From Acidimicrobiia bacterium (GTDB lineage: Bacteria; Actinomycetota; Acidimicrobiia; Spongiisociales; SHLN01): a stretch of DNA of 64,000 nt. Shown here one piece after another: positions 26,684-59,478 of this stretch. Location of the stretch: positions 1,578 to 65,577 of the forward strand of contig JBFGAX010000001.1 of NCBI GenBank assembly GCA_041567895.1. Direction: 5' to 3'. Within the stretch, counting starts at the first letter, position 1. Each line of letters begins with the position of its first letter. The notes below the pieces were generated by a model. It searched no databases. It had not been told where the DNA came from and saw only the letters and a list, made by a program, of their open reading frames with translations. Made by a program: the position numbers and the translations under genes.

Positions 26684-27610
26684 CTACGTGCGGCGATCGA
26701 TCTCGTAGACGCTGCCCGCCTGGCGCTTGGCGTGTTCCTTCATTTCGGAGGCAATTGCGGAAGCCTCCCACTGGTTCTGGATCGGGCGATGCTGATTTGT
26801 CACAACGCCCAGAGAAATCGACGTCAGCGGAAACGCATGACGCTCGCCCCGGCGATCGACCACTTCGATGTAACCACGCAACACATCGGCCGTGTCATAG
26901 AAGTCCAGCACGCCCTCGTCGAACGTCCTGATAACGGTCTTGCAAAAGTCTTCGACCCGCTCGGGATCGACCAGGGCGATGAAGTCGTCCCCACCGATGT
27001 GTCCGATGAATGGCTCAGCCTCCTCGAGCGCGGCTTGAGCCTCCAGGAGAACGTGGGCGGAGAATTTGATGACTCCGTCGCCCCGCATGAATCCATAATG
27101 ATCGTTGAACGCCTTGAAGTTGTCGAGATCGGCATGGACGAGGGCGAACGGCTTGCCGGAATCGATGCGACGCTCCAATTCCTGAGAGATCCGGAAGTTG
27201 CCGGGTAGCCCGGTGAGAGGCGACAGATCGCGGTTGGCCTGAGCTCTGGCCAATACAGTCTGAATGCGAGCAACGAGCTCGTCGAATTCAAAAGGTTTGG
27301 TCACGTAATCATCCGCCCCGAGCTGCAGACCCTCGACCCGATCCTGCGGCAGCGCTTTAGCCGTCAGGATGATGACCGAGATATTGGCCGTTGCAGGGTG
27401 CGTCCGCATGCGCCGAAGCACCGAAAGACCATCCATTCCCGGCATCATGATGTCGAGAATGACGAGATCGGGTGGATTTGCGGTGATAGCAGCCAGAGCT
27501 TGCTTGCCATCGTGAGCCGAATCCACTTCATAGCCGTCCAGCTCGAGGTTGACCCTGACGAAATGGACGATATCTGGATCATCATCGGCGACAAAGATCC
27601 GCTGACCCAT
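26684..27610 (-). CDS. Response regulator with REC domain fused to a GGDEF (diguanylate cyclase) domain; active-site variant GGDDF
   Basis: The REC domain is intact: acidic pocket DDD and the phospho-Asp in LVILDIMMPGMDG. In the GGDEF domain the GTP-contacting N (FND) and D (RGDG) are present. The A-site reads HIGGDDF and there is no RxxD I-site. Start is 2 nt after the rpe stop. Confidence 0.85.
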   Translation of the reverse strand: MGQRIFVADDDPDIVHFVRVNLELDGYEVDSAHDGKQALAAITANPPDLVILDIMMPGMDGLSVLRRMRTHPATANISVIILTAKALPQDRVEGLQLGADDYVTKPFEFDELVARIQTVLARAQANRDLSPLTGLPGNFRISQELERRIDSGKPFALVHADLDNFKAFNDHYGFMRGDGVIKFSAHVLLEAQAALEEAEPFIGHIGGDDFIALVDPERVEDFCKTVIRTFDEGVLDFYDTADVLRGYIEVVDRRGERHAFPLTSISLGVVTNQHRPIQNQWEASAIASEMKEHAKRQAGSVYEIDRRT

Positions 27611-47829: not shown

Positions 47830-48342
47830 CTACTTCAGAATCTGTTGTCCCTCACCCAAAACGAACGTCGAGTCACCAAAGAGGAACGTGACCTTGTCGT
47901 CGTCCAGGGCGACAATCTTGTACCGACCGGCAAATGTTTCGCCGACGCCAACGGTGTACTCGGTGCCATCGACCCGAACGATTGCCCTTCGATTCCCAGC
48001 GGCATCGGTGGTTATAGCCACGACTGTCACATTACTTCCGGCGAGTGGATCATCGGATCCGGTGACGTCGGGGGCACCGACAATGAGGGGTCGAAACGGA
48101 TCGCGGGGTTGGGCAGCCTGGAAAGCCTCCACCACACGTGAGCCGCGCAACAAACTGTCCGTGGAGCCGACGCCCGCAACCACGCCGGCGTCGGTGGCTG
48201 ACGGCAGCACGACGTTCTGCGGAGCATCGAGCGTCGTGCGCGAGGCGCCGAAGACGCCAGGCGCCACCAGCAGCCAGCTGATCGACACCAGCGCAGCCAG
48301 CAGCAAAATCGTCGTGATGAGTGTCGAGCTTCGCTTGACCAT
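47830..48342 (-). CDS. PilP-like type IV pilus assembly protein (N-terminal TM anchor, no lipobox)
   Basis: 170 aa; N-terminal TM helix, RDPFRP motif, then a beta-rich domain (AIVRVDGTEYTVGVGETFAGRYKIVALDDDKVTFLFGDSTFVL) resembling the PilP C-domain. It lies immediately downstream of pilM/N/O. Confidence 0.55.
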   Translation of the reverse strand: MVKRSSTLITTILLLAALVSISWLLVAPGVFGASRTTLDAPQNVVLPSATDAGVVAGVGSTDSLLRGSRVVEAFQAAQPRDPFRPLIVGAPDVTGSDDPLAGSNVTVVAITTDAAGNRRAIVRVDGTEYTVGVGETFAGRYKIVALDDDKVTFLFGDSTFVLGEGQQILK

Positions 48343-48923
48343 CAGTTCACCGCCTCCTCTAGTTCCAGGGTTCCCGGCAGTGGATTGGTTGAGAAGGCCC
48401 TTGCCGTCAAATTGGTCTGGAGAATGTTTGTCGACGTCTCTTCATCGAGATTGGCCGAGATCGAAAGCTGATCGACACGGATCAGCCTGTCGAGATCCTC
48501 CAAATCGAACAGGAATTGCAGCGTCCTGAAGTACTCGCCCTCGATCCCGAGATTGAGCGCGATTTCGTAGAGGTCCTCACTCAGCGTCGAACTGGCAGGC
48601 GGTATGGCCGAAAGCTGGGTAATAGTGAGCCCCGAGTCCCTCGCCAGAGCCCGGATGGACTCGAGCAATGCGGCCTCACTTGGATCCTCCGGGATCGAGA
48701 CAGAAATCTCAGCCACGGCGGCGTCGAACTGACCCTGCTGTCGCTGCAGCTCCAACAATCTCGTGATGCGAGCCTCGAGGGTCTCTTGCTCTTGCACTGC
48801 CGTCTGTAGATCAGCCTCGACATCATCAATAGTGGCAGTCGATCCCCGCCAAAACAAGAAAAACCAAAGAGCCAAAATGACCAATCCCACAAGCACCGCT
48901 ATCAACACATTCCGTCGGTTCAT
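48342..48923 (-). CDS. pilO: Type IV pilus assembly protein PilO-like
   Basis: 193 aa; N-terminal TM, coiled-coil (LQTAVQEQETLEARITRLLELQRQQ) and a C-terminal alpha/beta domain. Start overlaps the pilN stop. Confidence 0.65.
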   Translation of the reverse strand: MNRRNVLIAVLVGLVILALWFFLFWRGSTATIDDVEADLQTAVQEQETLEARITRLLELQRQQGQFDAAVAEISVSIPEDPSEAALLESIRALARDSGLTITQLSAIPPASSTLSEDLYEIALNLGIEGEYFRTLQFLFDLEDLDRLIRVDQLSISANLDEETSTNILQTNLTARAFSTNPLPGTLELEEAVN

Positions 48924-49519
48924 GAGATCTCCGGAATTCTGGATGCGATTCTGGTGCTGGCCGCTCCTTCAGTGAGTTGTGCCGTCGACTGATAGCTGAC
49001 GACCTCAACCCCACTGACGTCAGCAGCGGTGACCGAAGTCACCCAGGTAGAACCGAGTCCGGCGTAATTGGTGTTGTCGACCGAGCGCAGCCAGTTGGCT
49101 ACGTCCTCGTATTCGAACGCCGTACCCGAGACCGATATCTGCTCTTCATTTCCCGTCAGCGTGTTGAGCCACACGCGGTCCGGAATGAATCGGCCGAGAT
49201 CATTGAGCAGGCGAGCCCACGAGACATCTCCAGCAAGAGCTGCAGCCACGAGCTCGGTTCTGGCCTCGAAATTCTGGAGAGGAATTTCGAATTGGCCGAG
49301 AGAATCGATTTCGGCCTGTCTCGCTGCATTTGCTTGTTGCTGGGCAACGAGATCGTCTTCGAGGTCCCGGATGGTTGAGAGGCGCCCGAGTGTCAGAAAT
49401 GCAAGCAAGACGACCAGCAGCACCAGACCCGCCAGCAAAACGACGCGGTTGCGACGAGACGCCTCCTCTTCGAAGATCTCGCCAGGAAGGAGGTTTATAT
49501 CTCTCATTCGGGGCTCCAC
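48920..49519 (-). CDS. pilN: Type IV pilus assembly protein PilN
   Basis: 199 aa; INLLP motif (DINLLPGE) followed by a TM segment and periplasmic domain. Confidence 0.75.
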   Translation of the reverse strand: MEPRMRDINLLPGEIFEEEASRRNRVVLLAGLVLLVVLLAFLTLGRLSTIRDLEDDLVAQQQANAARQAEIDSLGQFEIPLQNFEARTELVAAALAGDVSWARLLNDLGRFIPDRVWLNTLTGNEEQISVSGTAFEYEDVANWLRSVDNTNYAGLGSTWVTSVTAADVSGVEVVSYQSTAQLTEGAASTRIASRIPEIS

Positions 49520-50565
49520 AGGGCCAGGCCGACCGGGACCGGGAGCACAGGCTGCAGAGGGGATACGACTTCATCGGACAGTTTGCCGGTGCTGAGGTGA
49601 CTGAGAACGCGAGCGGGTTCTACCGGTGCATCGAGCGCACGCCCGAGTCGATTGGCCAGGTGAGGCAGGCGGGCGCCGTTACCGGCCACAATCACCTTGC
49701 TCACCGAACCACCATCGCCCTGGCTCAGGAAGAAGTTGACGGATCCGCGAATCTCTTCAATGAACCTGCCGGCCTCTGCGGTCAAGAGTGACTGGGCCAC
49801 TTCGTCTTCGGTCTCGTCCCCGGATGCTGCGGCCGCGTCGTCATCCACCGAAATCCCGATCCGACGTTTGAGCTGCTCGGCGGCTTGGAATTCGAGATTC
49901 AAACCCTCAACGAGCGTCTCTGTGAACGCCGAACCACCGGTTTGAATGATGCGAACAAAACGTGGGGTCAATCCACTGACGAGCACGACCTGCGTGATGT
50001 CGGCCCCGATATCGACCAACACGGCAATACCGCTTACCGGCTGAGGAACCAGGGACCGGACGAGGGCAAAAGCTTGGAGATCGACAGCGATGACATTGAG
50101 TCCTGCAGAGGTGGTGACATCGAGGAAATCCTGAACCATCGATCGATGAGCGGCAACGGCGAGGATGGCCTGCATCGGTTCGCCCTCTGGCGTTGTGAAC
50201 TCGTCGATGCCAACGTGGTCGAGGATTGCCTCCTCGACTGACATTGGCATGTACTCCTGAACTTGAAACGGGAGGGCATCTCTCAACTCCGCTTCACCCA
50301 TCAGAGGAACATCGACCTGACGAACCACGACTCGCTGATTGGCGATGCCGATAACCACCCTCTTCTTGGGCAATCGATGCTTGCGCCAGAGCTCCTTGAT
50401 GGCGTCGACGATCGCAGCCCCGTCGATGATCTCGCCTGCGGCAACTGCACCTTCTGGCAACAGCACCTCACCGACCTTGCGAAGGACGGGCTGTGACTTT
50501 CCGGCGTCAATGGCCACAGCGCGAACGCTGCTGGAACCTATATCCAGGCCAACGTTGACTGCCAT
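49504..50565 (-). CDS. pilM: Type IV pilus assembly ATPase-like actin-fold protein PilM
   Basis: 353 aa; MAVNVGLDIGSSSVRAV (FtsA/actin-like phosphate-1 motif) with PilM-family architecture. Confidence 0.85.
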   Translation of the reverse strand: MAVNVGLDIGSSSVRAVAIDAGKSQPVLRKVGEVLLPEGAVAAGEIIDGAAIVDAIKELWRKHRLPKKRVVIGIANQRVVVRQVDVPLMGEAELRDALPFQVQEYMPMSVEEAILDHVGIDEFTTPEGEPMQAILAVAAHRSMVQDFLDVTTSAGLNVIAVDLQAFALVRSLVPQPVSGIAVLVDIGADITQVVLVSGLTPRFVRIIQTGGSAFTETLVEGLNLEFQAAEQLKRRIGISVDDDAAAASGDETEDEVAQSLLTAEAGRFIEEIRGSVNFFLSQGDGGSVSKVIVAGNGARLPHLANRLGRALDAPVEPARVLSHLSTGKLSDEVVSPLQPVLPVPVGLALWSPE

Positions 50566-50872: not shown

Positions 50873-51646
50873 TCATAGCCCGAGATACCACGATGCGATG
50901 GAGTCTCCCCAGAGAGCACCCAGCCAAGCTGCCGCCATCATGGCCGGACCGAATGGCATTTTGGCTTTCCGTCCACGTTTCGTGAACACCATGATCGCAA
51001 CTCCGGCCAATCCCCCGATCAAGAATGCGAGAAAGACACCAACGACCAGCTCCGACCATCCCGAATAGGCCATCACAAATCCGAGCAAAAAGGCCAGTTT
51101 GACATCGCCGAAGCCGAATCCCCCCGGGGTGATCATGAACAGAACGAAGAAAAGTACGAGGTAGGCGAAGCCGCCTGCGAACGCACCAGGCAGTTGGTCG
51201 GTCTGTCCCTCGAGAACGCTGCCACCGATGAACAGTGCAATCGTCAACCCGGTGCCGGTGAACACGATGCGATCGGGCAGACGCTTGTGATCGAGATCAG
51301 TGAGTATCAAGGCAATCGTGGTGCCCGCAAAGAACAGATACCCGGCCAACAAGGCATTGGGGCCGACCCACCAGGCAACGAGACCAAAGCTGACGGCCGT
51401 CGCCACTTCCACCACGGCGTACCGTCCGGAAACCGGATTCCCGCAATCACGGCATTTGCCGCCGAGACGCAGCCAGCCGATAACCGGGATATTGTCCGAC
51501 GAACGAATCGGGGCATCACAAACCGGACAAGCCGAACCCGGGGTAACTACCGATTTGCCCAACGGCACCCGATAGGCAACCACATTCAAGAACGATCCGA
51601 TAACGAGCCCAACCAGACCTGAAAACGCGATCAGCAGCTCATGCAT
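50873..51646 (-). CDS. pilD: Prepilin peptidase (A24 family, PilD)
   Basis: 257 aa; N-terminal zinc-binding CPVCDAP...CRDCGNP tetracysteine. Catalytic Asp context is present (DLDHKRLPD; GFGFGDVKL). Confidence 0.9.
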   Translation of the reverse strand: MHELLIAFSGLVGLVIGSFLNVVAYRVPLGKSVVTPGSACPVCDAPIRSSDNIPVIGWLRLGGKCRDCGNPVSGRYAVVEVATAVSFGLVAWWVGPNALLAGYLFFAGTTIALILTDLDHKRLPDRIVFTGTGLTIALFIGGSVLEGQTDQLPGAFAGGFAYLVLFFVLFMITPGGFGFGDVKLAFLLGFVMAYSGWSELVVGVFLAFLIGGLAGVAIMVFTKRGRKAKMPFGPAMMAAAWLGALWGDSIASWYLGL

Positions 51647-51655
51647 GCTCTATTG

Positions 51656-52147
51656 CTACCAGCCGGAGGCGGCCCACACCGGAGAAGGTGGAACCAGCGA
51701 GGGACAGGAACCACCGAAAAGCCCGGAGGCGGTAGACGCCTTACCGAACGCGGTAGCGTCCTGGACCGCATCCCAGATCCCGAACCAGGTTCCCGATTGG
51801 CTTTGCACAACCACGCAAACCGTGTCGCTTCCGTTGACGGCGACTCCGACCTGTCCGACTCCCGGTGTCAGCGATGCCACAAAGGCCAGGCTCGGTTCGA
51901 CTTCCTGTAGCACGGTCACATCGTCGGTATACGCGATCGTGGCTGCCATCACGCTCTTTTCGGCGACCAGGCCATGGCGTAGCGCAGTCTGAGCAGCTCG
52001 ATCCTGGGCAGTGGTCCGCTGACCGAGGAATGTCGGAACTGCGATAGAAACCAGGATCGCTACGATCAAAACAACCACCATCAGCTCTATCAAGCTGAAA
52101 CCGGCCTCACTGTCTCTCCTGAACATGAGACAGTATCGACGCCTCAC
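51656..52147 (-). CDS. pilA: Type IV pilin (class III signal peptide), copy 1
   Basis: ...EAG|FSLIELMVVVLIVAILVSIAVPTF has the prepilin cleavage site G/F and Glu+5, with a C-terminal Cys pair. The start is either GTG 52147 or ATG 52126. Confidence 0.85.
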   Translation of the reverse strand: MRRRYCLMFRRDSEAGFSLIELMVVVLIVAILVSIAVPTFLGQRTTAQDRAAQTALRHGLVAEKSVMAATIAYTDDVTVLQEVEPSLAFVASLTPGVGQVGVAVNGSDTVCVVVQSQSGTWFGIWDAVQDATAFGKASTASGLFGGSCPSLVPPSPVWAASGW

Positions 52148-52254: not shown

Positions 52255-52707
52255 CTACCAGCCGGCGCCAGCAGAGCAAGCTGCTTCATCCGCCGGAGTT
52301 GCGGCACCGGAGCCGTAAACGGTTGCCTGCTGTGGATGCTCATAGATCCAGAAGAAGGTTCCGCTGGCGGACTCGGACACCAGGCACACGGCACCTGTTG
52401 CAGCGTAAAGCGTCGGCAACACACCACTGTCGGCGGCGTCGTCAACTGTCCAGTCGAGGCTTGGCTCGATGGCGCTGAGATCCGCGGCTGTGGCCGTGTA
52501 GGCCTGATCATTCGCGTAGATGGTTTTTTCCGTGGCCAGGGCGTTGCGCAGGTTCGACTGAGCAGCGCGGTCCTGGGCCGTCTCACGTTGACCGAGGAAG
52601 GTCGGGATCGCGATAGCGACCAGGATGGCGATGATAAGCACCACGACCATAAGCTCGATCAGTGTGAAACCGTCTTCGTTCAGACGATTGCGCATCCGAT
52701 TCAACAT
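52255..52707 (-). CDS. pilA: Type IV pilin (class III signal peptide), copy 2 (probable major pilin)
   Basis: True start ATG 52707 (GGAGG 10 nt upstream): MLNRMRNRLNEDG|FTLIELMVVVLIIAILVAIAIPTF, with a C-terminal Cys pair. The track ORF extends further 5'. Confidence 0.85.
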   Translation of the reverse strand: MLNRMRNRLNEDGFTLIELMVVVLIIAILVAIAIPTFLGQRETAQDRAAQSNLRNALATEKTIYANDQAYTATAADLSAIEPSLDWTVDDAADSGVLPTLYAATGAVCLVSESASGTFFWIYEHPQQATVYGSGAATPADEAACSAGAGW

Positions 52708-52977
52708 GTTGTATTGCCTCCTATGACAATGAATCCGGGACGCAATGCGCGCCCCATGTACAACAGCTGTATCGGCGCCCCTCCCAGCTTCCTTGAGGGT
52801 GATCGACCAATTTCCCAAACGAACTAGTCCCCCGGGTATGCACCCTGAATGCGCTGCAAAAAGGCGCAGTCATCGCTTGGAGACAATCCGGGCCAACCGT
52901 GGGCTCGTCACAGTTCACATTCAACGTGCAGGCCGAGCGAAGGTTCGTTCGCTTTCGGTCGAGAGGGGGTTTGAGGG

Positions 52978-53132: not shown

Positions 53133-54359
53133 TTACCCGATGACATTGACCAGGTTGAACATCGGTAAGTAGAGGGCCACGAGGATGGCGCCGACTGTTG
53201 CACCCATGAACGCGATGAGGATCGGCTCGAGGAGGCTGGTGAGAGCGTCTACGGTGTCGTTGACTTCACGGTCGTAAAAGTCGGAGACCTTGTCGAGCAT
53301 GTTGTCGAGGGCGCCGGTCTCTTCGCCGACCGCCATCATCTGCACGACCATGGGCGGAAAGATTTTTCCCTCTTTGGCCAGCGGCTGGGAGATTGAATCT
53401 CCACCCTTGACGGCCTGTGCGACCCGGTTGACTGCGTCTCCGACCACTACGTTTCCAGCTGTCAACTCGACGATGGTCATGGCTTCCAGAATCGGAACGC
53501 CGGAACGGACGAGCACGCCGAGGGTTCTGGCGAATCGGCTGATCGCGGTTTTGTGGTTCATGGTGCCGAACACGGGCGCTCGCAATTTGAACGCATCCCA
53601 CATACGACGTCCGCCCGTGGTGTTGATCCAGCGCCTGAACGCGTAGACCGAGGCACCAAACGCGGGGAAGATGATGTACCACTTTGAGGTGAGAACGCCC
53701 GAGGCTCCGATCAGGGCTCTCGTCGCGATTGGAAGTTCGCCTCCAACATCCGCGTACATATCAACGAACTGGGGGACGACGAAGAGAAGCATCAGGGTTA
53801 CAACACCCGCCACCATGCTGAGTACCACGATCGGGTATGCCATGGCCGACTTGATCTTGCTGCGCAGCGCCGCTGCGGATTCGAGCGTATCTGCGATACG
53901 TTCGAGGGTCTCGTCCAGTACACCTGCTGCTTCACCGGCTTGCACCATCGCGACAAATAGCGTGTTGAAGACTTTGGGATGCTGCTCGAGTGCAACGCTG
54001 AGGCTTGCACCTCGCTCCACGCTGGCTCGTACCTCGCCAATCGTCTTCTTGAGGGGCTTGGAAACGGTCTGTTCTTCGAGAACATAGAGAGATCTCAGGA
54101 GCGACAGACCGGAATTGATCATGGTCGCAAACTGGCGGCTGAAGATGGCAATCTCTTTGGCTTTTATCCGGTCGGTTATGCCCGGGATCGAGATCTCTTT
54201 CTGGAGACCGTCGGTCTTCTTCTCGGCGACGCCGAGCGGTGTCATCCCGCTTTCCTTCAGAGCGCGGATGACCGCTTCTTTGGAGGAGCCCTCCAACTCC
54301 CCTTCGATGACTTTGCCGCTCTTGGCGTCACGAACCTTGTACGTGTACATCGAGGCCAT
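53133..54359 (-). CDS. pilC: Type IV pilus inner-membrane platform protein PilC (GspF family)
   Basis: 408 aa with two GspF repeats and 3 TM segments. Confidence 0.9.
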   Translation of the reverse strand: MASMYTYKVRDAKSGKVIEGELEGSSKEAVIRALKESGMTPLGVAEKKTDGLQKEISIPGITDRIKAKEIAIFSRQFATMINSGLSLLRSLYVLEEQTVSKPLKKTIGEVRASVERGASLSVALEQHPKVFNTLFVAMVQAGEAAGVLDETLERIADTLESAAALRSKIKSAMAYPIVVLSMVAGVVTLMLLFVVPQFVDMYADVGGELPIATRALIGASGVLTSKWYIIFPAFGASVYAFRRWINTTGGRRMWDAFKLRAPVFGTMNHKTAISRFARTLGVLVRSGVPILEAMTIVELTAGNVVVGDAVNRVAQAVKGGDSISQPLAKEGKIFPPMVVQMMAVGEETGALDNMLDKVSDFYDREVNDTVDALTSLLEPILIAFMGATVGAILVALYLPMFNLVNVIG

Positions 54360-54362
54360 GAT

Positions 54363-55901
54363 TTAGCCGCCCTGTAGGAGGCGTTGCATTGCCTCTTTGT
54401 CGTTGCATCGTTCCATGGCGAGTTCTCGAGTGATCTTGCCCTGTTTGGTCATTGCTGCAAGCGCCATGTCCATCGTCTGCATTCCGTATTTGCCACCGGC
54501 CTGAATCGCGCTGGGAATCTGGTGGACCTTGCCATCGCGCACGAGGTTTCTAATAGCCGATGTCGCGATCATGACCTCGACTGCTGCGATCCGGCCCTTG
54601 CCGTCAACGGTCGGGAGTAACTGTTGAGACAGAACGGCCTGCAGCGATCCTGCCAACATCACCCGAACCTGAGATTGCTGGTGGGCCGGAAATACATCGA
54701 TGATTCGCTCGATGGATTGAGGCGCACTCTGGGTATGCAGGGTTCCGAATACGAGGTGTCCGGTTTCGGCTGCAGTTAGCGCAGCACCGATGGTTTCGAG
54801 ATCTCGCATCTCACCCACCAGGATCACGTCAGGATCCTGCCGCAAAATGTGCTTGAGCGCCTGATTGAATCCGAGCGTGTCGGTTCCGACTTCTCGTTGA
54901 TTCACAATGCTCTTCTTGTGCCGGTGCAAGAACTCGATCGGATCCTCAACCGTGATGATGTGACTCGCCCGCTCAGTGTTGATGAGGTTGATGATCGACG
55001 CCAACGAGGTTGACTTACCTGAACCGGTCGGGCCGGTCACGAGTACGAGACCACGATGCAGATGCGCAAGCGAGTTGACGGCCGCAGGCATGCCGAGCTC
55101 GTCGGGGTTCTTGATCTCATTCGGAATGGAACGAAGAACTGCCGCTACCGAATCACGCTGGAAGAACACGTTTACACGAAACCGTCCTCGTCCAGGGAGC
55201 GGATGAGACGTGTCCAGTTCACGAGTTTCTTCGAACCGGGTTCGCTGCTCAGCCGTGAGAATGTCGTACAAGATTCGGCGAAGCTCGGCCGGCATCAGAA
55301 TATCGAACCCCTCCATGGGCTCGAGCGATCCGTGGACGCGCACCATGGGCGGTGAACCGGCCGTCAGATGAAGATCGGAACCTTGCTTTTCAATCAACAA
55401 CTCGAGGAAGTCGTTGAGATGAACCTGTTCGGAAACTTCTGTCGGTACGCGACGCGGCTCCTCATCGAGGCCCATGAAAAATGAATTGAGCATCTCGTCG
55501 ATGCCGGTCTGGCTGGCAAGCGCCATCGTCACGGCTGAGCCACACACCGTCTCGAGGCTGGTCTGAATGTCGCGGATGAACGGATTGGCGACCGCCACAA
55601 TCACACGGCCGTCTTCAACCTTGATCGGTATGGCATTGAAGCGGTGTGCAGTATCGGGATCGAGCCTGGACACTGCCTCGGGCTGCAGCACTTCGTTCTG
55701 TACGTCGACATACCTCATGCCTATCCGGTCGGCGACCGTAGCAAGCAGATCCCCCGGTGAGACGTGGCCGTTTTGCAGAAGGATTCGCGCGAGGGGAACA
55801 TCCGTGTCCTTCTCCTGTACGTACAGGGCTTCGAGTACATCACGGCTGAGCAGCCTCTTATCGACGAGTGACTCGCCGATTTGTTTGGATACCCGGTTCA
55901 C
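54363..55901 (-). CDS. pilT: PilT-type retraction ATPase carrying an N-terminal T2SSE_N/MshEN-like domain
   Basis: The C-terminal ~360 aa is a PilT core: Walker A GPTGSGKST, HIITVEDPIEF, GHLVFGTLHT, and the signature AIRNLVRDGKVHQ, with no tetracysteine. The N-terminal ~150 aa parallels the PilB N-domain (IGESLVDKRLLSRDVLEALYVQ...PLARILLQNGHVSPGDLLATVADRIG...IPIKVEDGRVIVAVANPF). Confidence 0.85.
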   Translation of the reverse strand: MNRVSKQIGESLVDKRLLSRDVLEALYVQEKDTDVPLARILLQNGHVSPGDLLATVADRIGMRYVDVQNEVLQPEAVSRLDPDTAHRFNAIPIKVEDGRVIVAVANPFIRDIQTSLETVCGSAVTMALASQTGIDEMLNSFFMGLDEEPRRVPTEVSEQVHLNDFLELLIEKQGSDLHLTAGSPPMVRVHGSLEPMEGFDILMPAELRRILYDILTAEQRTRFEETRELDTSHPLPGRGRFRVNVFFQRDSVAAVLRSIPNEIKNPDELGMPAAVNSLAHLHRGLVLVTGPTGSGKSTSLASIINLINTERASHIITVEDPIEFLHRHKKSIVNQREVGTDTLGFNQALKHILRQDPDVILVGEMRDLETIGAALTAAETGHLVFGTLHTQSAPQSIERIIDVFPAHQQSQVRVMLAGSLQAVLSQQLLPTVDGKGRIAAVEVMIATSAIRNLVRDGKVHQIPSAIQAGGKYGMQTMDMALAAMTKQGKITRELAMERCNDKEAMQRLLQGG

Positions 55902-57640: not shown

Positions 57641-58417
57641 TTACAAACCGGCTGCGATTCTCATCTCGTGGCGCGGGGCTGGCAGACCGGTCCACCATTC
57701 GAAGCTGAGCGCAGCTTGCTCGACGAGCATGTCGATTCCGGAAACGACCGGTATCCCGCCCTCCGTGGCCAGGCTGACCGCAGGAGTTGGTTGGTCGGCA
57801 TAGGCCATGTCGAAGAGCCCCGTGGCACCAGCCGACATCGGCGTCGGGAGCTCCTCGGCAGCCATTCCGAGAGGAGTGGCGTTGACGAGCACACCTGCAA
57901 ACGGATCGCCCCAATCCAAAACGGTACCGGTCACCCCGACCGATTTCAGAACTGCTGTGGCAGCCCCCTGGCGTCTGGCCGAGACACTGATCCGACCCGT
58001 CGTGATCGAAGCCACAGCGACCAACGCCGCCGCTGCCGCGCCACCGCCTCCCAGGATGAGCACATCACCCGTGGGTAGCTCGGCACTTCTCCAGCACGCG
58101 CGTATAGCCGGGATGTCGGTGCTGATGCCCATGACTCTCTCGCCACGAACCATCATCGCGTTTACAGACCGGGCAATGGCCGCATCGGCGGAAACCACAT
58201 CGGACGACGTATACGCCAGGCCCTTGTGCGGCATGGTCACGTTCACGCCCGTCAACCTTCCACTCGCAATCTCCGAGACAGCAGATGTGAACTGCACAGC
58301 ATCCACCTCCCGCGCCTCGTAGGCGCCCTGAACTCCGTGATAGGCCAGAGCTGTCTGATGCATGGCCGGAGATCGGGAGTGGCCAACCGGGTTGCCCAGC
58401 AGAGCCAGGCGCATCAT
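57641..58417 (-). CDS. aroE: Shikimate dehydrogenase
   Basis: The track ORF is over-extended. The probable start is MMRLALLGNPVGHSRSP (ATG 58417, overlapping the mltG stop, TGATG). A GGGGAAAA NADP loop is present. Confidence 0.8.
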   Translation of the reverse strand: MMRLALLGNPVGHSRSPAMHQTALAYHGVQGAYEAREVDAVQFTSAVSEIASGRLTGVNVTMPHKGLAYTSSDVVSADAAIARSVNAMMVRGERVMGISTDIPAIRACWRSAELPTGDVLILGGGGAAAAALVAVASITTGRISVSARRQGAATAVLKSVGVTGTVLDWGDPFAGVLVNATPLGMAAEELPTPMSAGATGLFDMAYADQPTPAVSLATEGGIPVVSGIDMLVEQAALSFEWWTGLPAPRHEMRIAAGL

Positions 58418-59478
58418 CAGAAGACGCCTTCGGCGCGGGCCTTTGCCACCTTTTCGTTGTGCTCCTCGAGCGTCACGCTGAAACCATGACTGCCGTCGGG
58501 GTCGACCAGCACATAGTAAAAGAAGGGTGTGTCTTCGGGATCTCCGGCGGCGATGAGCGACCGCAAACCTGGAGCGGCAATCGGCGTTGGCGGGAGTCCG
58601 GCTCGAACGTAGCTGTTGTAGGGAGACGAAGATTGCTTGTCGGCGTTCGTGGGAACTCCTCGCTCGCCCCGCCCGTACACCAGCATGGCATCGATCTGAA
58701 GCAAGATGCCCTCTCGAAGACGGTTGTAAACGACACTGCTGATGATCGGCCGATCGGGATCGAGTTTCGCCTCGGCTTCGATGATGGATGCGATGATGAG
58801 TGTCTCGTACTCGGTAACTCCGAGTTCTTCCATTCGGTTCCACTCGGCCGCCTCGACCCTGAGCTGCATTTCGGTGGCCATCTTTTGCAGAACTGTTGCG
58901 GGCGATGCATCCTCAAAAAACTCGTAGTTGGCCGGAAACAACAATCCTTCCCAATCTGCCAGGTTGCCCGGCGTTCCCGGAAACAGCGGCGAAACTACGC
59001 TGCCATCGAGCAGAGCCGTTGCGTACGCGTCGACCGAGTGAGGAGATTGTTCCGACAGGGATTGAAGGATTTCACTCACCCATAGCCCCTCCCTGATCTT
59101 GACGGTATACACGTCCTTCAACTCCGGACCCTGACGGAGAATCTCAACCGCAGCTTCGGATCCCATTCCGGTGGTCAGCTCGTAGGTACCGGCCTGCAGC
59201 GAAAAGCCGAGGCCGTTGGCCTTCACATACGACTCGAATTGGCTGGCGCGCTCTACGACACCTGCCTCCGCGAGCACGTTGCCGATGTCTTCGGCACTCG
59301 ATCCAGATTCGATGTCGACGATCACCGACTGGCCGGCAACGATCGTGGTGGCGGGTCCGCCTCCAAACGACTCGGCGAGCCGGGTAGCGCCCCATGCCAC
59401 GATGGCGAGTGCGAGGAGGCCGATCATGATCCCGAGCCATACCGGAAAGCCCCCCGAGGGTTTGTCGTACTCGATCAT
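58417..59478 (-). CDS. mltG: Endolytic murein transglycosylase MltG (YceG family)
   Basis: 353 aa with an N-terminal TM segment and a YceG-like domain. Confidence 0.85.
   Translation of the reverse strand: MIEYDKPSGGFPVWLGIMIGLLALAIVAWGATRLAESFGGGPATTIVAGQSVIVDIESGSSAEDIGNVLAEAGVVERASQFESYVKANGLGFSLQAGTYELTTGMGSEAAVEILRQGPELKDVYTVKIREGLWVSEILQSLSEQSPHSVDAYATALLDGSVVSPLFPGTPGNLADWEGLLFPANYEFFEDASPATVLQKMATEMQLRVEAAEWNRMEELGVTEYETLIIASIIEAEAKLDPDRPIISSVVYNRLREGILLQIDAMLVYGRGERGVPTNADKQSSSPYNSYVRAGLPPTPIAAPGLRSLIAAGDPEDTPFFYYVLVDPDGSHGFSVTLEEHNEKVAKARAEGVF

Follow-up and report, generated by a model that had tools for sequence, protein, structure and literature searches.

Absence of an N1 domain is a standard feature by which the retraction ATPase of type IV pili, PilT, is separated from the extension ATPase, PilB, and to our knowledge all known control of these pili by cyclic di-GMP (c-di-GMP) operates on the extension side, through MshE, PilB, PilF or FimX/PilZ-PilB. 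Here we describe a 512-residue PilT that carries such a domain, encoded next to pilB in a 64,000-nt stretch of an Acidimicrobiia bacterium (positions 1,578 to 65,577 of contig JBFGAX010000001.1, assembly GCA_041567895.1; the whole stretch is hereafter the window). By analogy with related motors, the added N1 domain would serve mainly as a platform-coupling or 'landing-pad' module rather than as a high-affinity c-di-GMP receptor, a reading to which we give a probability of about 0.5.

In canonical MshEN domains, the N-subdomain is a four-helix bundle that forms the c-di-GMP pocket, and the site consists of two 24-residue motifs, (R/K/L)LGxxhhxxGhhxxxxLxxxLxxQ, separated by a spacer of five residues (Wang et al. 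2016; extended in 2024). PilT is not mentioned at all in the founding MshEN paper, and recent reviews treat the domain for extension ATPases only. The openly accessible literature searched held no description of a PilT with an MshEN/GSPII domain, nor of second-messenger gating of both type IV pilus motors. The architecture should come as a moderate surprise to a pilus specialist. Databases label such proteins plain PilT, and domain-architecture tables do not reveal the fusion, since its Pfam architecture (PF05157+PF00437) is also that of PilB.

A complete retraction ATPase carrying an N1 domain

The product of the gene is a complete retraction ATPase of type IVa pili. Residues 162-502 match TIGR01420 (pilT_fam) over model positions 2-341 of 343 with 480.6 bits against a cutoff of 319, whereas the PilB model TIGR02538 reaches 181 bits on the same protein (cutoff 675). 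Compared with solved structures, the core reaches 337-402 bits against PilTs, 268-297 against PilU, 133 against DotB and no more than about 100 against PilB/GspE; these two sets of scores rule out PilU and PilB as its identity. The alignment of residues 161-512 runs end to end with canonical PilTs from Geobacter metallireducens (6ojx), G. sulfurreducens (5zfq), Aquifex aeolicus (2ewv) and Pseudomonas aeruginosa (3jvu), with which the protein has in common the Walker A/B motifs, the Asp and His boxes, the AIRNLxRxGK signature, the lack of a zinc site and the adjacency of pilB and pilC. Canonical PilTs, however, have about 345-375 residues and begin at the N2 domain, while the fusion adds about 160 N-terminal residues (GSPII/MshEN domain plus linker). 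Among these core motifs are EDPIE (residues 319-323), DPDVILVGEMRD (356-367) and TLHT (387-390), and in a 34-sequence family alignment the Walker A/B motifs, both boxes and AIRNLVRDGK are conserved, most of their residues being invariant. The only cysteines are C120 and C498, so the protein has no tetracysteine zinc site, whereas PilB has CKKC...CGAC. A sequence-only reading of the window had called the PilT core unmistakable, from its AIRNLVRDGK signature and the missing zinc tetracysteine, and this holds in full, as the core groups with PilT and not with PilB/GspE. From homology and operon context, the protein is probably a retraction motor in vivo as well.

The preceding residues adopt the PilB-type N1 fold. 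Pfam MshEN (PF05157) matches residues 61-144 with 48.8 bits (gathering threshold 23.1), in the region where the earlier reading had expected a T2SSE_N domain, and residues 1-159 have further counterparts in GSPII domains of Thermus PilF (E 3.8e-24) and in the MshEN domain of Vibrio cholerae. That reading had also described the first ~150 residues as collinear with the N-domain of the adjacent PilB; the alignment is indeed gap-free between residues 1-120 of both proteins, with an identity of about 30%, which is too low for a recent duplication or chimera. An AlphaFold2 (AF2) model of the full length, built with the 34-sequence alignment, reaches a predicted local distance difference test score (pLDDT) of 86, and a model of the N-domain alone reaches 94; they show the two-subdomain MshEN/GSPII fold, with bundle helices at residues 3-14, 20-33, 37-43 and 49-59 (pLDDT >90). 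When the N-domain model was compared with the PDB by Foldseek, the best 20 matches were all MshEN, GSPII, PilB-N1 or XpsE-N domains (TM 0.50-0.68), PilF GSPII-A ranking first, and PilF GSPII-B and MshEN with bound c-di-GMP giving TM 0.63-0.68. The linker that follows varies from 12 to 39 residues across the family. As had been proposed from the sequence, both motors of the operon thus carry the module. With PilB, MshE and GspE (V. cholerae MshE, 5htl; Myxococcus xanthus PilB), the protein shares the N1 fold, the 24+5+24 motif spacing and the order N1-linker-N2-C-terminal ATPase domain (CTD), but unlike PilB and MshE its motor is of the PilT clade and its c-di-GMP motif is degraded where MshE and PilB keep it.

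Could the long open reading frame be an artefact, through an over-extended start or an assembly chimera between pilB and pilT, or else a decaying remnant without function? The two genes are adjacent paralogs, and one relative (P0109) is listed as a 353-residue PilT without the domain, which would speak for such an origin. P0109 is not a true short relative, however: its start is itself miscalled and the N-domain lies in frame upstream, 511 residues of its locus (L038, 3530..5056 of JAOTWY010000116.1, assembly GCA_029862705.1) align in a single frame, at 66% identity to the 512-residue PilT. In the window, the gene is likewise a single frame, its GTG start is the first start codon past the upstream in-frame stop and shares 4 nt with the pilB stop (GTGA), a Shine-Dalgarno-like GAGGG lies 7 nt upstream, and the homologs share the same starting residue. 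Together with the architecture's recurrence in 35 genomes and more than 110 clusters, the ~30% N-domain identity and the pLDDT of 94, these features refute an over-call, a chimera or a remnant, and we leave these explanations next to no probability.

These >110 clusters (508-551 residues, 54-68% identity), all with PF05157+PF00437, came from a word-indexed search across 5.8 billion proteins, in which one entry is 99% identical to the 512-residue protein; where a source name is given it reads 'PilT' or 'PilT/PilU family', and the taxon-bearing names are Acidimicrobiia. Among GTDB species representatives, a scan based on the N-domain alignment (A3) found the fusion in 35 Acidimicrobiia/Actinomycetota metagenome-assembled genomes (MAGs), none of them cultured; its patterns are narrow (for example [AV]SR[KQ]LG[ED]LLV) and recover only the Acidimicrobiia subfamily, so that this count does not measure the full taxonomic range. 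The common gene order in these MAGs is alaS-ruvX-mltG-pilB-pilT (510-530 residues)-pilC-pilin(s)-pilD-pilM-pilN-pilO-X170. The fusion is old and under purifying selection, and in all the uncultured Acidimicrobiia genomes recovered it has the identical operon context, a consensus member being the L002 protein (KLGELLVDRRLLS...).

In an HMMER search that covered 1.84 billion representatives exhaustively, MshEN was present, by both the family hidden Markov model and Pfam, in 17 of the 150 clusters with the closest PilT cores; the 25 Pfam families most frequent in these clusters include no further accessory domain other than ATPase ones, and the remaining clusters are tandem PilT-PilT proteins or have domain-less extensions. 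In a neighbour-joining tree of the cores, the 512-residue protein falls within a pure MshEN-bearing clade of 16, while another pure clade, with 4 members, and five singletons lie elsewhere; the tree has no bootstrap, and the count of independent fusions it suggests (one large clade, one small, five singletons) is only indicative. The smaller clade represents a separate lineage in Armatimonadota, which comprises more than 70 clusters of 525-555 residues (P0139, P0281-P0398).

Other unusual architectures also occur. P0213 (887 residues, from a Logan assembly) has tandem MshEN domains at 8-149 and 186-323 before a PilT core at 519-878, a PilF-like multi-GSPII layout on a retraction-type motor. 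The tandem PilT-PilT fusions (P0040, P0123-P0128, P0353-P0397), which make up many of the nearest PilT relatives, have two core matches each in about 694-754 residues, and the taxon-bearing names among them point to MAGs of Myxococcota and Eremiobacterota. The MshEN domain was clipped off PilT by the gene caller in at least one genome: the deposited annotation of L038 gives a 353-residue PilT from an internal start, and the 467-nt 'intergenic' gap left after pilB encodes the domain.

The c-di-GMP motifs in PilT and PilB

The spacing of the two motifs is exact in the 512-residue PilT (residues 7-30, spacer 31-35, residues 36-59), the five-residue spacer KDTDV is kept, and the alignment is gap-free with PilB, MshE and PilF. 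Key residues of both motifs are nevertheless missing: the protein fails even the relaxed motif of the founding paper, at three positions of motif I and two of motif II (deviations in Table 1), position 2 of motif I being a conservative Ile. On NF053729, the curated NCBIfam model of the c-di-GMP motif (cutoff 38 bits), the protein scores 25.2 bits, five typical members of its family are borderline at 37-43.8 bits, and PilB scores 55 bits here and 48.5-64.7 bits in proteins of its own family.

The family consensus, drawn from 115 members and repeated in 34 genome-derived PilTs, is (K/Q)LG..LV..(R/H)LL....L...L..E for motif I, with Glu at position 24 and never Gly at position 10; for motif II it is P-h-A..L(V/T/I)..G(H)V....L...V..R, in which position 3 is never Gly (A/T/P). 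The PilBs of the same genomes remain near-canonical, with HLG..LL..Ghh....L...L and PLG..LV...hV....L...L. To the family deviations, the 512-residue PilT adds Q7, I8 and Y27. The claim that the N-terminus of the neighbouring PilB closely matches the c-di-GMP motif holds by and large: it passes NF053729, and yet departs from motif I at positions 1, 2 and 21 and from motif II at positions 1, 3, 10 and 11. Both N-domains are outliers in their own families at ligand-contact positions (Q7, I8 and Y27 in PilT; F8, Q27, S36, T38 and E45 in PilB), which hints at a relaxed constraint on nucleotide binding in this lineage.

What do such deviations mean for binding? A yardstick is GSPII-A of Thermus thermophilus PilF (9g1w), which gives the best fold match and fails to bind c-di-GMP. 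Its motif I is nearly intact, with H33 at position 24, and its motif II carries S39 at position 1 and A41, I55, I59 and R62 at positions 3, 17, 21 and 24, so that it and the MshEN-PilT family agree in the Ala of position 3, the Arg of position 24 and, at 21, a beta-branched aliphatic residue. Truncated GSPII-A bound measurably only when H33Q, S39R and R62Q were combined, binding was abolished when S39 was restored, and A41G was required for high affinity, Ala there costing about 10-fold. In GSPII-B, the substitution Q190E at motif I position 24 raised the dissociation constant (KD) from ~6 nM to ~800 nM at pH 8.5. The family-fixed Ala (motif II position 3), Val (II 21), Arg (II 24) and Glu (I 24) are residues tied, in the Thermus work, to non-binding or to 10- to 100-fold weaker binding, and the Arg/His that replaces Gly at motif I position 10 counts with them among the deviations linked there to impaired binding. 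The comparison covers fold and motif residues: GSPII-A sits in an extension ATPase with three tandem GSPII domains, unlike the MshEN-PilTs, and its failure to bind also rests on an N-cap and intersubdomain contacts. The 512-residue protein belongs to the PilT and MshEN/GSPII fold families and, on the evidence assembled here, lies outside the c-di-GMP-binding subset. The suggestion that its module is a functional c-di-GMP sensor, made before any domain search, therefore fares poorly, given the score of 25.2 bits, the failures of the relaxed motif and the fixed PilF-linked deviations; second-messenger control of retraction is a possible but somewhat unlikely reading for this protein.

A number of observations weigh on the other side. 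Within the N-domain, conservation is highest in the helical bundle, whose mean pairwise identity is 53% as compared to 39% in the alpha/beta subdomain, and in motif I the guanine-contacting Leu 2, 17 and 21 and Gly 3 are nearly invariant, as expected for a retained ligand site. Four of the five typical family members just pass the NF053729 cutoff (39-44 bits). The Armatimonadota motif II, WLG..L(I/V)..G(L/x)(V/I)....I...L..H, is nearer to the c-di-GMP consensus than the Acidimicrobiia version, and has at position 1 a large hydrophobic residue, reported to predict high affinity. As for GSPII-A, sequence motifs alone did not predict binding; even with a perfect motif the full-length domain does not bind, because of the N-cap and intersubdomain contacts. 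Q190E PilF, moreover, still binds through a protonated Glu (KD ~40-800 nM; crystal structure 9gl5).

Is the N-domain, then, a functioning receptor for c-di-GMP, whose affinity Glu 24 might make lower or pH-dependent, that gates the retraction motor directly together with the extension motor? The MshEN fold with its exact 24+5+24 spacing, a family motif I near consensus ((K/Q)LG..LV...LL....L...L, Lys at position 1 being an accepted high-affinity variant), a Pro at motif II position 1 that also occurs in the binding GSPII-C, the NF053729 scores of the typical members, the conserved bundle, the binding retained by Q190E PilF, the more canonical Armatimonadota motif II and the presence of a REC-GGDEF-like gene in the window are all consistent with it. 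Against it stand the sub-threshold score of the 512-residue PilT with its extra Q7, I8 and Y27; a motif II that never has Gly at position 3 and ends in Arg 24, and R/H at motif I position 10, which breach even the relaxed founding-paper motif; the same motif II pattern in the non-binding GSPII-A; and the uncertain cyclase activity of the REC-GGDEF-like protein. We hold this explanation to be doubtful. By extension, that MshEN-PilTs might act as direct second-messenger receptors, c-di-GMP switching PilT on or off the platform and the two motors being reciprocally gated in Acidimicrobiia, Armatimonadota and other lineages, is a tentative idea that we consider rather unlikely; if binding were true, pilus retraction would thereby gain its first direct input from a second messenger.

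Alternatively, the pocket might have been re-tuned to another ligand, such as another cyclic or linear nucleotide or a peptide of a partner protein. This would explain why R/H 10 and E 24, together with the invariant D21 and D51 and with P36, A38 and R59, are fixed and do not drift: the deviating positions are themselves strongly conserved, within a bundle of 53% identity. However, conservation of the bundle can be structural, and the literature examined offered no example of an MshEN domain that binds anything else, so that we consider this explanation improbable.

Only one c-di-GMP-related gene was seen in the 64 kb. It lies at 26684..27610 (-) and encodes a receiver (REC) domain fused to a GGDEF-type domain, whose Pfam match covers model positions 5-90 of 161 and whose signature is GGDDF and not GG(D/E)EF. 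The cyclase activity of this protein is uncertain on account of that signature; a diguanylate cyclase that is atypical or inactive is one possibility, and c-di-GMP signalling in this organism is no more than plausible.

Proposed platform coupling of the two motors

That the N1 domain of this PilT would mainly couple the motor to the platform finds a precedent in the type II secretion ATPases EpsE and XpsE, whose N1 domains are bound to EpsL/XpsL, the homolog of PilM/PilN (2bh1, 4pht, 2d27), and thus show how this fold can dock a motor on a PilM/PilN-like platform. The alpha/beta C-subdomain of the PilT N-domain superposes on the EpsL-binding N1 module of EpsE (2bh1; TMt 0.68); EpsE and XpsE belong to the type II secretion system, and the comparison made here is a superposition of folds. 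Binding between GSPII domains and EpsL/XpsL has been published, GSPII-A has been proposed as a 'landing pad', and GSPII-C of PilF is required for the stimulation of its ATPase by PilMN (PMC6325625). In the same study, no GSPII domain was needed for PilMN binding itself, only for stimulation, which weighs against a docking role.

If coupling is the function, N1 would tether PilT to the PilM(N) ring by the same kind of handle as PilB, PilM being the proposed docking partner of both N-domains. As both motors have the same handle, PilB and PilT would compete for one docking site on the PilM ring. c-di-GMP, if made in this organism, would act chiefly on PilB, with its near-canonical motifs, and may shift the occupancy of the platform by PilB and PilT, and thereby the balance between extension and retraction. 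Docking of this kind would support a model of motor exchange, with a single PilM site contested by the two ATPases. A PilT with N1, conserved class-wide, indicates that a retraction motor can also use the N1 handle, and MshEN-PilTs are a natural system for separating the functions of N1, be it docking, allosteric coupling or ligand sensing.

The pil operon and neighbouring genes

The pil operon lies on the minus strand, downstream of aspS-alaS-ruvX-mltG-aroE, and its features are collected in Table 1. No second PilT was found within the window by tblastn.

Table 1. Coordinates in the window of the pil operon genes and of the domains and motifs of the 512-residue PilT
Feature	Positions	Strand	Remarks
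pilB, extension ATPase, 560 aa	55898..57580	(-)	TIGR02538 647 bits; own MshEN domain at residues 1-~145
pilT-long, 512-aa MshEN-PilT fusion	54363..55901	(-)	GTG start; 4-nt overlap with pilB stop
PilT four-helix bundle (MshEN N-subdomain), residues 1-60	55722..55901	(-)	AF2; fold matches 5htl, 8pdk
PilT motif I QIGESLVDKRLLSRDVLEALYVQE, residues 7-30	55812..55883	(-)	deviates at 1 (Q), 10 (R), 21 (Y), 24 (E)
PilT motif II PLARILLQNGHVSPGDLLATVADR, residues 36-59	55725..55796	(-)	deviates at 1 (P), 3 (A), 11 (H), 21 (V), 24 (R)
PilT alpha/beta C-subdomain, residues 61-143	55473..55721	(-)	PF05157 at 61-144; AF2; 2bh1_X TMt 0.68
PilT disordered acidic/Pro linker, residues 144-160	55422..55472	(-)	pLDDT <50 at 144-157
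Complete PilT body (N2 domain + ATPase CTD), residues 161-512	54363..55421	(-)	TIGR01420; solved PilTs
Walker A GPTGSGKST, residues 290-298	55008..55034	(-)	invariant in family
PilT signature AIRNLVRDGK, residues 449-458	54528..54557	(-)	R451, R455, K458 invariant
pilC, platform protein	53133..54359	(-)	Pfam T2SSF x2
Pilin 1	52255..52818	(-)	N_methyl motif
Pilin 2	51656..52147	(-)	N_methyl motif
pilD, prepilin peptidase	50873..51646	(-)	
pilM, actin-like platform protein	49504..50565	(-)	Pfam PilM_2
pilN	48920..49519	(-)	
pilO	48342..48923	(-)	
Conserved 170-aa protein, last in pil operon	47830..48342	(-)	no Pfam match

The operon ends with a conserved 170-residue protein, whose counterparts (about 165-225 residues, with an N-terminal hydrophobic segment and no Pfam match) follow pilO in most of the loci that reach that far (L001-L031), and which may be a lineage-specific component of the platform or alignment complex, perhaps PilP-like.

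Two open reading frames are over-extended as called. The most likely start of Pilin 1 (52255..52818) is internal, at MLNRMRNRLNEDG|FTLIELM, while that of aroE (shikimate dehydrogenase; 57641..58843, minus strand) is at about MMRLALLGNPVGHSRSP, its Pfam domains lying in the C-terminal 285 residues.

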